This document shows, piece by piece, positions 51,001 through 57,000 of a DNA stretch of 64,000 bases. The stretch lies in the UHGV virus genome UHGV-1440165, one strand, 5' to 3'. The first letter of the stretch is position 1. The number at the start of each line of letters is the position of its first letter. The stretch comes from a virus. The position numbers are program-made.

Positions 51001-54000
51001 GGCAAGACATCCTGTATAAAGCACCGGAAGTCAACACTCAGGAATTCCTGACCAGACAGCAGTCAGAGTTGGCGGTGCTGCCGTTCGACGCTCCGTTGTG
51101 GGTTGTGGGTAACGCGATTTGTCATCAGGTACGGTCTGAATTGCGCGTTGTTGACATGCACACCAAAGACTTCTATGCCTACTGTGAGACTAATCCAATG
51201 ACCCGTGAGGTCGGTGGGAAGGATCCTTTGGCGCACAGAGTGCCTGAGAAGCCTCAGAAGGCATCTAAACAGAAAACCAAGGCGAGTGCCCAGCCAGAAG
51301 CACCGAAGGCAGCGTCGCGCTCTCTCCTTGATCTAATGAAGAAGGGGTGATTATGAAACGGTTGTCTAATTATCTGTTGTTCATCGGTCTGGTTATGGTA
51401 GCCGTTTCAATGTGCGCTGCTCTAGCCTATCATTTCACTCCTCTGGACTTGACAACCTCAGAGAAGTTGAACGTGACTGTATTGTACTGCATTGGCACTG
51501 TGATGTCCATCAGCGCCGCTGGTTATAAAATATTCAAGGAACCAAAATGAAAATTGAAATCCCTCGCAACGCCGTGGCTGTTGCAATTGACTACAACGGG
51601 AATGCCCAGCACATCACCGCCGTGCGCCTGATACCCGAGCGCAACAGCATCATCCCTCAGTTTCAGCTGAATGCCAATCCGGTCTCCAAAGACTTCGGCC
51701 AGTGGAAGCAGGCAGCACCGTTCCGTAGCGAAACCAACGCCCAGCGCTTCATCTCGGATAAGACCCGGACTGCCGCTCGTTTGTGGTTCGTAACCGCCGA
51801 CCGCCGCTTCGTCGACATGTGGGAGCGCCCTATGGGATTCGTTAAGGCGGAAGACATCCAGCTGGCTCCTGAAGAGGAAGCGAAAGATGACGCATCTATC
51901 TAAAATGCCGACGGGCTACGCGCCCCCGGCTGAATGGAAGTACCCGATTGACCTGGCTGTCGACTATCGCAAGCCTGAGAATCGCATGTACCTGCTCAAG
52001 GCTTGGGTGGAGGCGCTATCCTACACAGAAGAGCACAACCAGCAGATGCGTCTGATGGACTATGCCATTGAAGTCACTGAAGGCATCAGCCTCGAACAGA
52101 AAGTCGAGCGCAAGATCTGGATGGCATTCCTGTGGGGTTGTTGCTACAACGCCATCGGTCCATGGACGATCTACAGTGAGTTCCCTGTGCCGCCACAGTC
52201 CAAAGAAGAGATGCAACGCTTCTCTGACTGGTACAACCTGAACTTTGAACGCATGCGCTTCGATACCGATTGCCGCTATCGCAAGTCGAAGATGATCCCA
52301 TGTGTTCAGTCCTACATTGACTGGCTGGCGGGGCGTACTCAATATGACGCTTTCCGTGAGATGTTGGTGTGTATTGATAAGGCGGAACAATTCACCCAGC
52401 TGTGGGACACGGCGATGTCCTGGAAATACTTCGGCCGCCTGAGCGCCTGGAACTTCCTGGAAGCCCTGAACATGGTCTTCGGCGACGAGTATACCATTGA
52501 CGTCCCTGGGTTCATGCTGCGTGACCGCGATGGCAGTGAGTCCAACCGTAACGGCGCGGCGTTCTTGTCCAACCGTGATGATTGGGTGACCAAACACGGG
52601 AAGAAAAAGATCAACGGCTGCCCTATCACTGACGAAGAGTGCGACATCCTTGAGGCCGACCTTGAGCAGGCGTTCCAGGATTGTGTTGCTGAGTTCGGGC
52701 ATCTGACGTTCATCAATCGCCTGAACTTTGAAACCTCCGGCGCATGCTGGCTGAAGAAGTTCTTCCGTGAAAAGCAAACTCGTTACATTGGGTGGGATGC
52801 CGAGCGTACCTGGGAAGAGATCGACTACATGGAACGCATCTGGTCGGAGTACTCCTGTGCAGCGCTCTGGGAAGCCCGTTCACTCTGGCTGCCAGATACC
52901 CTGTTGTGCGAAAAGGCTCCTCCAGGACACGTTCCAGGCGTCCAGAAGTGGAAGATGCCTGTGTTCTTTGAGACTGGGGTTCCTCTGCATATCTGGCATC
53001 TGCAAAAGGGCACGCGCTGGGAACCATCTGAGGTGTGTGAACGCCCGAAGGCAACCGCCAAGTCTGAAGACAAGCCGAAATCAAACAGCGTCAACCTCAT
53101 GGCACTCTTGAAACGCTGATATAAATATCCTCGCCTATAAAGTGAGGATATTATCATGTTACAAGATCTGTTGGTCTACGCACTTCCGGGTGTGGTTGTT
53201 GGATTCATCGCAGGCGCTCTGGTCTTCCGCAAACATGCGCAGGACGGTGAAGCAATCGTTCAGAAAGGCAAAGAGATTCTGAACCAGATCGAAGCCAAAC
53301 TGGAAGAACTGAAGAAGTAATCTGACTGCGATTGCGTTCTTCAATAAGGGGGAATGGGTTATTATTAGCCCGTTCCCCTTTCTTTTGCAAGGAAATACAT
53401 CATGGCTATGCAACGAATTGAAGATATGGACTCCCTGGATATCGAATCTATGGTGTCTGTAATGCTCGAAGAAGATCGCAAGACCCCTGTGGTACAGCAC
53501 CCGATGCCGGAATTGGGCGACGCTGATGGGCTGTGGAAAATGCTGAACGGCAACAAAACCTCCGGTAAGAGTGGGTTTGCCCGTGGCGAACTGAACATCA
53601 TTTGTGTCGGAGGCCGCACAAGATGATCTACCTCCTGTTTGGTGTGCCATTGATATTGGCTATCCTGTTTGTGGTCTACCACCGCAAGACCCATGAGCCG
53701 AAAGAGACTCTGATTGCGACGGCGATTGTGGTGGTGCTGTCCTGTCTGATTCAGGCCGGGGCTTATGCGGCGTTCTCCCTCGGCAGTTCGGGGGACGTCG
53801 AGATCCTGAACGGATACGTCACTGGCAAAGAGCGCAATAAGGTGAGCTGCGAGCACTCTTATCAGTGCAACTGCTATTACACCACATCGTGCTCCGGCTC
53901 CGGTAGCAGCAAGTCCTGCACCCGTACCCGCCATTGTAGCACCTGCTATGAGCATTCATACGACGTGGATTGGGATGTGCTGACGACTGTTGGCAATCTG

Positions 54001-57000
54001 ACGATAGACCGCATCGACCGCCGTGGTCTTGGTCAGCCCCCGCGCTGGGCGCAGGTTCAGATTGGTGAGCCAGCGGCCAGGGAACACTCCTACATGAACT
54101 ATGTTCTGGGCAACAAGGACTCTCTGTTCTCCCGCTCTGACCAGCAGTTTGCCGAGCGCTTCAAAGACAAGATTCCCAAGTACCCTGAGGTCTATGACTA
54201 CTATCGTGTCACTCGTGTTCTGAACGTGTCCGGCCTGGCTTTGCCCACCACATACTGGAACGATTACCTGAATGATGTTCTGAAGAAGCTGGGCGCGGCC
54301 AAGCAGGTGAACATCGTCTGGGTTGTGACCTCTGGTCAGCCAGTTGAATATTTCCAGGGCTTGGTCTATGCATGGGATGGCGGTAAAAAGAATGACGTTA
54401 TCGTCGTCACCGACATCAGCAAAGACCTGAAGATCAACTGGGGTAAGAGCACGTCGTTCGCCGATGGTATGCACAACCGTGAACTTCACTCCCGCAACGG
54501 TATGGACCTGACCGGGCATGATATGGGTATTGGCGTCATGACAGACGTTGTTGCCAACATTACCAAAGGCTACAACCGGGTGGAGATGAAGGAAATGGAG
54601 TACCTGAAGTGGCGGGAACTCAAGACCTGGGAAGTTGTGATTGTTGTTCTGCTGGGCTGTCTACCGTTCACCGCAATTTTCATATTGCAGCGAATGGAGT
54701 ACAATGGTGGCCGTCGTCGTTATCCGTTTAATTTTTAATCAAAAGAGGAAGTAAGAATGTCTCAATCTAAGGGTATTGCAACAGGTTGGATCGTTGGTTT
54801 GGCTTTACTGGCTGCTGCTGTTGTCGGCATCGGCACTGTCATCAGCTACTTCAATGACTTCAACCGCACCGAGCAGCAGGTCAAGAAGTTCAACAAAGAC
54901 TCCGAGAACTACCTGAGTAACTATACGCTCAAAGTTCAGGAGACGGCGCAGATTCCTGACATGTACAAAGACGGCCTGAAGGAAGTGATCAAAGGCACGT
55001 TCGAAGGGCGTTATGGCGCTGACGGTTCCAAGGCTGTGATGCAGTGGATCCAGGAGCAGAACATTCAGTTCGATTCCAGCCTGTACAAAGAGATCCAGGT
55101 GGTGATCAGTTCCGGGCGTGATGAATTCCGCATCAGCCAGACCAAGAAGCTGGATATCTGCGCGTTGTACGAAACCAAGCTGTCCCAGTTCCCTGGTTCG
55201 TTGATTGCTGGCGTGTTTGGATACCCGCGCATCGATCTTGACAAGACCTGTCAGGTGGTGAGCGATACCCGTACCCAGGCTGCGTTCGACGCCGGGGTTC
55301 AGAAACCGATCAACTTCAAAGGCTGATATCATGGGCTTGAAACTGTTAGAATCCCTGACGCTGGACCAACAGCAGGCTCTGTTGGACGAAGTGGTGATCT
55401 CTGCGGTCAAGCAGGGCATCATCAAAGACGACACGTTGATCAACCGTCCGGAGATGATTCATCATCTGGTGGTGTGCCTGGGTGAAGCCAATCACCCTCG
55501 CAAGAAGATCGTTTTGTTCACCGATGGTGTGATTCATCCGAGCGGGAACTGCGCGTTCATGGATGTGGTTGAACATCCGAACACGAAGGGTAAAGAGATC
55601 AAGACCTCTGTTCCAGTGACCCCATACACTGAGGGTGTTGATCAGCTGTCTTGGTTTGAGACTATCAACACCATCTATGTGATGGCGGTCGGTGGTCGAC
55701 CTGTCCAAGACCTGCGCGGCGCTATTAAACCAGAGCCGAAAACTGAAGTCTAATCGTTCTTCAATAAAAGGGGATAGGGTATTATTGCTCTATCCCCTTT
55801 TTCATGGGCAGGAACATGACAGACAAGCCAAGAAAGATTGCGATTATTGGAGCCGGACTGGGCTCTCGGCTGATCAAAATTCTGTTGGAAGAGAAGCTGC
55901 CGGGAGTGGAAGTTGTTCACATCACACCTGATGATATCCCGAAGCGTCGGAGTGAACCGGGTGAGCGCATGATCATCTGTGACGAACTACAACAGATGCC
56001 GGACACCAAGGCTCTGATTGCCAAGTTGAAACAACGAGACACGGAGATGTCTGCTGAATGTGATATGCGGGAGTTCTATGCCGACCGCCGCTATCAAGAA
56101 CCCACACGCCTGCGTGGAGCCGCTGCTCAAAAACGTCAGGCCAATAAGATGAAGAATAAACGCCGGAGCAAACGCTGATGACTACCAAACCAACTTATGA
56201 AGAACTGGCACAGACCGTTCTGACCTTTGACAGCACCCTGAAGACCCTATACAAGGTTTTGGGTAAGAACCCGACTTCGGAATCAGGCGACGCAGTTAAT
56301 CTTCTGCTGTTGCTGAATCCTCTATGGGGTATCGATGCCACCGTCGCTGCTTTGAAAGATCCTAATGCGGTGGAATCTCCTGAAATGCCAGACCAGGATG
56401 AACTGGCCTCCGCATTGATGTATCTGGATAATGCTTGGTCAGAACTTTTCACCCAGACATGCTCCAACCCTGTATCCAACGCCTGGGGTAAATCTTTGGA
56501 TTTCACAGAGGTGAACAACTTCCGTGAGAAAGCATCTGGCACCGTGTATCGCACCCGCCTGGCACTGAAAGGTGAAACCAAAGAAGCCAAGCCGGAAGCC
56601 CCTGCGACCACGGGCATTCAGAAGTACCTGGAGAACTTTGATCAGTACTCCTTTACTGATCTGCTCTTGCGCGACCTGGTCAACACGGAACGCCGTCGTC
56701 AGGAAAAGAATTGCCCTACAGTTCAGTCGGATCATGAGATCGAGGAAATCGTTCGCGAAGAGCTGAACAGCGCCTACTCGCCTATCGATCTGGCTGTAAT
56801 GATCGTCCAAGCATTGTCATACGCCGCGAAAGGAGAAACCAAATGAAGAAGTCATCCGCTGCTGTTGCTGCCATGTTGGCGCTGTCGGAAATGGAAATCG
56901 TCGCCACGCATCGCGGTGATGACATGTGGGGGCGTCGTTACACTCAGGGCGGCGCACCCGGCGAACCAGGCCATGGTCGCCCGTCTGTAACCCGCAAGAA

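Follow-up and report, generated by a model that had tools for sequence, protein, structure and literature searches.

Bacteria very commonly encode LemA and TPM proteins (at least 8,000 candidate LemA relatives in our search), and the closest described systems to the genes discussed here are bacterial operons in which a LemA gene is paired with a gene for a TPM-domain protein. Here, we describe two adjacent genes, open reading frame (ORF) A and ORF B, in a 64,000-nucleotide stretch of UHGV virus genome UHGV-1440165 (the whole stretch is referred to as the window), which belongs to a phage of the Ackermannviridae of the Agtrevirus/Limestonevirus type. Both ORFs were found on the plus strand at exactly the coordinates first proposed for them (53623-55326), and ORF B begins 18 nt after ORF A, in agreement with the claim that a LemA-like gene lies downstream of a gene for a 371-amino-acid protein. 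The original prediction had also held that LemA proteins usually occur with a membrane partner in bacteria. This was the case in all four bacterial lineages that we sampled, Neobacillus, Thermotoga (the source of the solved LemA protein, PDB 2ETD), Carboxydocella, and Thermincola: the LemA gene is directly followed, on the same strand, by a gene encoding a protein of 238-263 amino acids, and TPM (PF04536) was identified in three of the four. These partners have a signal or anchor sequence, the TPM domain, a transmembrane (TM) helix, and a Gly-rich tail.

The window pair shares several properties with the bacterial LemA-TPM operon (Thermotoga TM0961, PDB 2ETD). In both, two adjacent genes are co-directional; one encodes a protein of ~190 amino acids with a single N-terminal TM helix, a helical domain, and a C-terminal Y..(5-6)..FP....A...G(F/Y) motif; and the other encodes a membrane-anchored protein, predicted to be of the TPM type, with a TM helix after the domain. 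Both proteins apparently face outside the cytoplasm. We consider it very probable that ORF A and ORF B represent a form of the bacterial two-gene membrane module that has been adapted to phages and has diverged strongly. The pair is of the LemA-TPM kind, hence nothing categorically new, and is a distinct phage variant because its proteins, unlike the members of the bacterial operon, fall below the Pfam family thresholds, its gene order is inverted, and it has an extra domain of unknown kind. As the best explanation overall, we favor with modest confidence a reading that joins this identity to an envelope complex. A role for such a complex in maintaining or re-tuning the host inner membrane or envelope during infection is a tentative proposal made by analogy.

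TPM proteins include assembly or repair factors of membrane complexes, namely AtTLP18.3/Psb32 for photosystem II, AscF for the mycobacterial CIII-CIV supercomplex, and Bacillus subtilis YdjH, which acts with PspA. TLP18.3, Psb32, AscF, and YdjH are anchored in an energy-transducing membrane on its extracytoplasmic or lumenal face, as predicted for the phage TPM protein, whereas the similarity does not reach significance at the sequence level and the phage TPM domain is fused to a different N-terminal domain. A functional analogy only, as phage envelope proteins made in the infected cell, is offered by T4 Imm and Sp and T5 Llp, single small proteins that exclude superinfecting phages. Unlike these, the window pair is a conserved two-gene unit with bacterial relatives, and no homology to them was detected in Pfam, PHROG, or PADLOC. 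TPM has been described as a chaperone-like assembly factor and PspA partner (PMC11237479), and lemA and one TPM gene rise jointly under envelope stress in Flavobacterium (PMC13236525). In the literature that we searched, we found no description of a LemA-TPM pair in lytic phages and, beyond general context, no functional study of the pair.

Remote similarity to LemA and TPM proteins

The claim that ORF B is a LemA homolog found support in profile methods and none in plain hidden Markov model (HMM) scans. Using a family profile of 49 sequences, we obtained 2ETD as the top PDB match (E = 0.0024), with profile positions 34-162 aligned to chain residues 10-155. LemA was also the commonest sub-threshold Pfam match among the ORF B relatives (6 of 49, best E = 0.0016). 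We then compared the phage family, using hhalign, with 20 aligned bona fide LemA proteins, taken from a set in which all members carry PF04011 (the LemA proteins in the search were 185-209 amino acids long). This comparison yielded a probability of 96.5% (E = 8.6e-10) over 145 colinear columns, including the C-terminal Y...FP...A..G(F/Y) motif. Without the TM helices, the probability was 80.8% (E = 1.3e-5, 130 columns), and the controls, comprising five column-shuffled, one reversed, and three unrelated-family comparisons, gave 0.1-1.3%. In 63 of 160 phage loci, the best match of an HMM built only from bacterial LemA proteins coincided with ORF B.

The architecture of ORF B is likewise that of LemA, with 189 amino acids, one N-terminal TM helix, and an all-helical remainder, and the AlphaFold 2 model is all-helical (predicted local distance difference test [pLDDT] score of 83). 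The phage proteins differ in having an invariant loop of their own, F.GRYG..GS.A..Q.I.E.N, and a cysteine pair in 29 of the 49 members. A scan against NCBIfam returned nothing relevant to LemA, and a precomputed Pfam domain was present in none of 96 ORF B homologs; the homolog from Klebsiella phage May is named "LemA family protein" in UniRef. Collectively, the profile comparisons indicate that ORF B is in all likelihood a remote LemA homolog outside the current boundary of the Pfam family. The UniRef name of the Vibrio phage phi 3 homolog would make ORF B a lipoprotein, a candidate that we rejected on finding no cysteine near the N-terminus of the window protein.

The 371-amino-acid product of ORF A had been described as carrying TM helices at both ends and a Cys-rich segment between them. 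Hydropathy identified two N-terminal helices and one C-terminal helix, and seven of the nine cysteines lie at residues 76-108. Relatives of this protein form 454 clusters at E ≤ 1e-3, none with a Pfam assignment. In the AlphaFold 2 model (pLDDT of 89), a TM hairpin is followed by a beta-rich region (residues ~57-160), an alpha/beta region (residues ~195-330) in which the TPM fold was recognized, and a final TM helix. PF04536 was by far the commonest sub-threshold Pfam match in the ORF A relatives (11 of 45, best E = 1.8e-4). These matches fall in one register, with residues ~205-263 aligned to profile positions 11-76, and score 14-18 bits against a gathering score of 22.1 bits. On the strength of the modeled fold and the sub-threshold matches, and not of sequence statistics, ORF A is predicted to carry a TPM domain. 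The search for a TPM-type partner domain that accompanied the original prediction was thus answered by the fold, while the profile-profile comparison did not reach significance. The original interpretation of the pair is supported, with the partner being of the canonical type.

The other domain of ORF A is rich in cysteine and histidine, with conserved residues C76, H78, C82, C84, C90, C99, C105, C108, and H111; the cluster at residues 76-111 corresponds to positions 53848-53955. No relative of this beta domain was detectable in Pfam or PDB, and a scan of ORF A against NCBIfam and Pfam gave nothing above noise. The only return of a PDB profile search was Jagged-2, which we dismissed as a chance match (E = 1.9). 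Most members of the family have seven conserved cysteines, an odd number. C84 and C105 are lost jointly in the same eight sequences, and C108, H78, and H111 are lost jointly in three, C108 being lost only together with both histidines. Because of the seven cysteines and these two patterns of joint loss, the sequences suggest a domain with three disulfides and a possible Cys-His-His metal site formed by C108, H78, and H111.

Several observations weigh against the identification of the pair as a LemA-TPM module or against the role that we propose for it. A direct Pfam scan of ORF B gave no LemA (PF04011) match at E ≤ 1, and a scan of the window ORF A gave no PF04536 match, placing both proteins below the gathering scores. 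When ORF A was compared by hhalign with four bacterial TPM proteins encoded beside LemA, the probabilities of 2.5% (full length) and 4.4% (domain by itself) fell short of significance; the part aligned to this profile of only four sequences was the correct beta-alpha-beta motif. The phage gene order is TPM then LemA, rather than LemA then TPM as in bacteria. In addition, an extra TM hairpin at the N-terminus and ~100 amino acids of Cys/His-rich beta domain set the phage TPM protein apart from the bacterial partners, whose Gly-rich C-terminal tail it lacks. The proposed role is an analogy built on an analogy, because we know of no function established for the bacterial LemA-TPM pair itself. Finally, the ORF B homologs of GAP32 and RaK2 are listed, second-hand, as virion-proteome proteins (PMC5259590 supplement).

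The resemblance to LemA and TPM could also be convergent or artefactual, in which case the pair would be an unrelated, phage-specific membrane complex. Such an explanation would account for the position of both proteins below the Pfam thresholds, the nonsignificant TPM profile-profile comparison, and the non-specific matches that we obtained in a fold search of ORF B, and spurious matches are common with helical proteins. However, the two remote similarities are independent and correspond to the two halves of one known gene pair. Moreover, the LemA alignment runs from end to end, persists once the TM helix is taken out, and exceeds all controls at least 60-fold in probability. We therefore regard an artefact as extremely unlikely.

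Co-inheritance and distribution of the pair

We examined the gene neighborhoods of 80 viral contigs retrieved via the LemA-like protein and of 80 retrieved via ORF A. An ORF A relative was located directly upstream on the same strand in all 80 of the former, and a LemA-like gene directly downstream in 78 of the latter; at the two remaining loci, the sequence ends ~110-140 bp after ORF A. The pairwise divergence of the two proteins is correlated, with a mirror-tree r of 0.935 overall and of 0.66 for pairs less than 50% identical (Mantel 0/999). Co-conservation, a check put forward with the original prediction, is thus essentially absolute. After collapsing the loci into 35 lineage groups, between which ORF A is less than 60% identical, ORF A and ORF B were the only genes common to the groups. 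No conserved third partner gene was present in more than three of the 35, and the apparent extra clusters were antisense shadows of the pair. The ORFs that flank the pair in the window, of 74 amino acids (phrog_5099) and 140 amino acids (phrog_4236), are not conserved with it outside the Ackermannviridae. The pair is a self-contained, co-inherited, strict two-gene cassette.

In the GenBank phage collection, ORF A was detected in 487 records and ORF B in 498, or ~1% of sequenced phages. By host genus, the records for ORF A and ORF B number 168 and 166 for Salmonella, 63 and 63 for Escherichia, 55 and 54 for Klebsiella, 29 and 29 for Erwinia, 26 and 25 for Aeromonas, 23 and 23 for Acinetobacter, 22 and 22 for Serratia, 22 and 22 for Vibrio, and 19 and 19 for Dickeya. 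Carriers include Ackermannviridae, T5-like phages, ICP1 (where the pair lies amid uncharacterized genes), Rak2-like and Ea35-70-like jumbo phages, phiM7/phiM12-like phages, and Lak megaphages. The phage pair has a surprisingly wide distribution and is tightly coupled. Comparison with relatives shows purifying selection on both genes, with ratios of nonsynonymous to synonymous substitution rates (dN/dS) of 0.02-0.24. Given these ratios, the strong PHROG matches (phrog_2087 for ORF A, E = 7e-164; phrog_1383 for ORF B, E = 1e-85), and the number of phage records with homologs (487 and 498), ORF A and ORF B are real genes. The window proteins are clear members of these two PHROG families, whose labels ("unknown function" for phrog_2087 and "virion structural protein" for phrog_1383) hold no LemA or TPM information.

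Divergence from a Kuttervirus locus (L089) differed between the two genes. The proportion of synonymous differences was 0.87 (saturated) for ORF A, with 84% amino acid identity, and 0.32 for ORF B, with 93% identity. Because the two values are discordant, they suggest a recombination junction between or near the genes.

Viruses account for nearly, but not quite, all of the ORF A family: 29 loci were found in 185,579 species genomes, mostly in bins of metagenome-assembled genomes (MAGs). At least 10 of the 29 come from candidate phyla radiation bins, and at least one of these (L174) looks like a mis-binned phage. The loci L179, L188, and L192 look bacterial. On L179, a Candidatus Kaiserbacteria MAG contig, a phage-type TPM/LemA-like pair at 5840-7524 occurs in the context of RmuC, a SEC-C protein, and DUF192, and the same contig carries, at 9414-11273, a canonical LemA gene (PF04011, E = 4e-63) with an M48 peptidase gene one gene later. 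L188 (5776-7131) and L192 (5851-7044) are high-GC, apparently myxobacterial chromosomal homologs of ORF A with the same Cys and GGKKND motifs; they adjoin Ser/Thr and histidine kinase genes, with no LemA-like partner within 6 kb. The MAG contig L171 (344-1992) was the only locus seen with the bacterial order, a LemA-like gene followed by an ORF A homolog.

In CBB, a TelA-like protein adjoins the pair and a stomatin/Band-7 protein is encoded elsewhere (CBB_340 and CBB_29); both are envelope-stress-type proteins (PMC5259590). A "putative metallopeptidase" upstream of the CBB pair (CBB_342; L165, 595-1269), which could be compared with the LemA/M48 neighborhood of L179, is mislabeled, as it matches the Rv2179c-like 3'-5' exoribonuclease domain.

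Predicted topology and candidate roles during infection

Topology prediction, also called for originally, confirmed the membrane helices by hydropathy, and charge bias puts both globular parts outside. The N-terminal side of ORF B is net positive and the side after the TM helix is net negative, as expected for an N-in/C-out orientation. In ORF A, positive charge prevails in the loop between TM1 and TM2 and in the C-terminal tail, and negative charge in the regions flanking the large domain. Its TPM-type region is followed by a membrane anchor (TM3), and the domain itself is predicted outside by charge bias. C135 and C165 of ORF B are both present in 29 of the 49 family members and both absent in 20, and are never split. 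Such covariation is a disulfide signature and therefore points to an oxidizing compartment. Because of the covarying cysteine pairs and the positive-inside charge bias, we infer from the sequences that both globular parts would lie in the oxidizing periplasm.

In the explanation that we favor, ORF B would be a LemA-like helical protein with one N-terminal helix in the inner membrane. ORF A would be an inner-membrane protein whose TM2-TM3 loop carries the Cys/His-rich beta domain and then the TPM-fold domain. Since the pairing is obligate, the two proteins would assemble into a hetero-complex on the periplasmic side of the inner membrane of the infected cell. This complex may stabilize or re-tune the host inner membrane or envelope during infection by large virulent phages, and would not itself be a component from which the virion is built. 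By analogy with the bacterial systems, the pair is most likely an inner-membrane complex acting on the envelope of the infected cell. The membrane-remodeling or exclusion module suggested in the original prediction would be compatible with these observations.

Existing annotation instead points to the virion. phrog_1383 and many records label the ORF B family "virion structural protein" or "structural protein," and the homologs of Pectobacterium phage DU_PP_V, Serratia phage Yaphecito, and Shigella phage Gloob are called "major capsid protein." ORF B could accordingly be a virion structural protein, possibly a membrane-inserting ejection protein, with ORF A as its assembly factor. The GAP32 and RaK2 homologs marked in virion proteomes in the CBB supplementary table agree with this possibility. 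However, LIMEstone1 encodes ORF194 and ORF195, which are 99% and 96% identical to the window ORF A and ORF B, respectively, and neither is among the 39 proteins of the LIMEstone1 virion proteome, which includes trace amounts of the non-structural proteins rIIB and DNA ligase (PMC3296691). The CBB homolog, CBB_344, was not detected by mass spectrometry in CBB virions, and its "structural" label derives from the reported detection in GAP32 and RaK2 (PMC5259590 supplement). In the same table, the CBB and GAP32 columns likewise give the score "structural" to the stomatin/Band-7 membrane protein CBB_29, suggesting membrane carry-over, and the simplest reading of the GAP32 and RaK2 detection is co-purification of abundant membrane proteins or vesicles. 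In addition, the gene lies outside the structural gene block, and the signal-anchor topology and covarying cysteine pair point to export through the inner membrane, which is at odds with packaging in the cytoplasm. The "virion structural protein" label is therefore not supported for ORF B, being contradicted by the LIMEstone1 virion proteome, and the "major capsid protein" labels are plainly wrong. We consider a virion role highly improbable.

A periplasm-facing complex could also serve superinfection exclusion, stopping the DNA or ejection proteins of later phages at entry, as in the comparison with T4 Imm/Sp and T5 Llp. The two domains are predicted to lie in the periplasm, the site at which components of incoming phages act; the cassette stands by itself and recurs in genomic settings that are unrelated to one another, as accessory or competition genes do; in the window, it lies in a non-structural region near rIIA and rIIB; and many large virulent phages that infect Gram-negative hosts carry it. 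In contrast to variable accessory genes, however, the pair is under strong purifying selection across at least 35 lineages. Its bacterial LemA-TPM relatives are housekeeping-like chromosomal genes, its PHROG matches carry no such function, and PADLOC-DB gave no defense or exclusion model match for ORF A and only a weak LeoBC match for ORF B. The latter (16.2 bits, E = 0.0011) covers only the TM helix and the first helix and was dismissed. Exclusion thus appears unlikely.

The predicted anchoring of periplasmic domains in the inner membrane would suit a lysis-timing device as well, with the pair acting as a periplasmic sensor or antiholin-like regulator by a logic like that of T4 RI/T lysis inhibition. 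A possible late promoter upstream and the nearby rII genes are consistent with this idea. On the other hand, we detected no homology to holins, antiholins, endolysins, or spanins (one of 45 relatives matches a holin family, with E = 0.07), no lysis gene is conserved beside the pair in any other lineage, and the "rIIB lysis inhibitor" label downstream in Yersinia phage CAU_YEP3 has no Pfam or PHROG support. A function in lysis timing is very unlikely.

The cassette could, more generally, be a phage-specific periplasmic device, more than a housekeeping pair borrowed from bacteria, in which the Cys/His-rich domain serves as a new kind of module for sensing or binding. In combination with the TPM and LemA-like domains, this module might sense or prevent some event on the outer side of the inner membrane. 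Candidate events would be entry of a superinfecting genome, attack by a membrane-targeting host defense, or a lysis signal. We view this reading as rather unlikely, and continue to favor the envelope complex of LemA-TPM type.

The transcription unit and the significance of the pair

The 74-amino-acid ORF, ORF A, ORF B, and the 140-amino-acid ORF form one transcription unit between two strong hairpin terminators (Table 1). This region shares 95% identity with Yersinia phage CAU_YEP3 and ~91% with Dickeya phage LIMEstone1, and the LIMEstone1 annotation has equivalents of both terminators in the same arrangement. A GGAGG precedes the ATG of ORF A.

Table 1. Coordinates of the four-gene unit, its borders, and the predicted domains of ORF A
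Feature	Position	Strand	Description
T4-type late-promoter-like box	53120..53127	+	TATAAATA; intergenic, after the amino-acid:DNA transferase (ADDT) gene and just upstream of the first terminator
Rho-independent terminator, upstream border of unit	53349..53386	+	10-bp stem GGGGAATGGG/CCCGTTCCCC followed by TTTCTTTT; from scan and sequence reading
74-amino-acid ORF, first gene of unit	53402..53626	+	phrog_5099 (unknown function); stop overlaps the ORF A start (ATGA)
ORF A	53623..54738	+	371 amino acids; TM hairpin, Cys/His-rich beta domain, predicted TPM domain, C-terminal TM helix
ORF A TM1 (residues 1-19) and TM2 (residues 29-47)	53623..53763	+	Short basic loop HRKTHEPKE, predicted cytoplasmic; hydropathy and family-wide charge bias
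ORF A Cys/His-rich beta-strand domain (residues ~57-160)	53791..54102	+	
ORF A predicted TPM-fold domain (residues ~195-330)	54205..54612	+	Motif KQVNIV...W.GGKKNDV
ORF A TM3 (residues 337-355)	54631..54687	+	Followed by short basic tail RRRYPFNF, predicted cytoplasmic; hydropathy and charge bias
Ribosome-binding site of ORF B	54744..54751	+	AGAGGAAG; inside the 18-nt spacer between ORF A and ORF B
ORF B	54757..55326	+	189 amino acids; signal-anchored LemA-like protein, TM helix at residues 12-30, then predicted all-helical domain
140-amino-acid ORF, last gene of unit	55331..55753	+	phrog_4236 (unknown function)
Rho-independent terminator, downstream border of unit	55770..55802	+	GGGGATAGGG ... 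CTCTATCCCC followed by TTTTT; read from sequence

The late-promoter-like box TATAAATA has two matches in the 64-kb window, a number that is not significant, since two were reached in 10 of 100 shuffles. The position equivalent to the box at 53120 is annotated as a "putative late promoter" in LIMEstone1, and this box possibly drives read-through into the four-gene unit. A scan for sigma-70 promoters gave no excess over the shuffled background. The two terminators (53335-53386 and 55755-55802 when extended upstream) share a common leader, CGTTCTTCAATAA, followed by a G-rich stem and a loop with a -10-like TATTAT. This pattern occurs three times in the window, compared with 0.13 expected, one of the occurrences being weak (three mismatches, minus strand, 44274). 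In LIMEstone1, a promoter is annotated inside the equivalent terminator. The shared pattern may be a reused terminator/promoter cassette.

Upstream of the unit, a 410-amino-acid protein encoded at 51887-53119 matches amino-acid:DNA transferase (PF18724, E = 1e-60), which belongs to the pathway of thymidine hypermodification that characterizes ViI-like phages; rIIA lies downstream of the unit. Small neighboring ORFs in CAU_YEP3 are labeled "rIIB lysis inhibitor," "adenylyl-sulfate kinase," and "NADH dehydrogenase-like." The first and last of these are present in the window, where their labels have no Pfam or PHROG support, and the "adenylyl-sulfate kinase" ORF is absent from it.

For annotation, the consequence is that hundreds of database entries carry a LemA-like protein as "virion structural" or "major capsid" protein, labels that the evidence argues are wrong. 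Were the pair a phage-specific device, it would represent a widespread, previously unrecognized class of phage envelope system and would give a first experimental handle on LemA-TPM pairs. In the reading that we favor, large virulent phages keep a recognizable, strongly remodeled copy of the LemA-TPM module as an inseparable unit under purifying selection, which implies that, during infection, the pair would have an important task on the periplasmic side of the inner membrane. In phages with simple genetics, such as ICP1, CBA120, and LIMEstone1, the search for a phenotype of the entire LemA-TPM family would be tractable.

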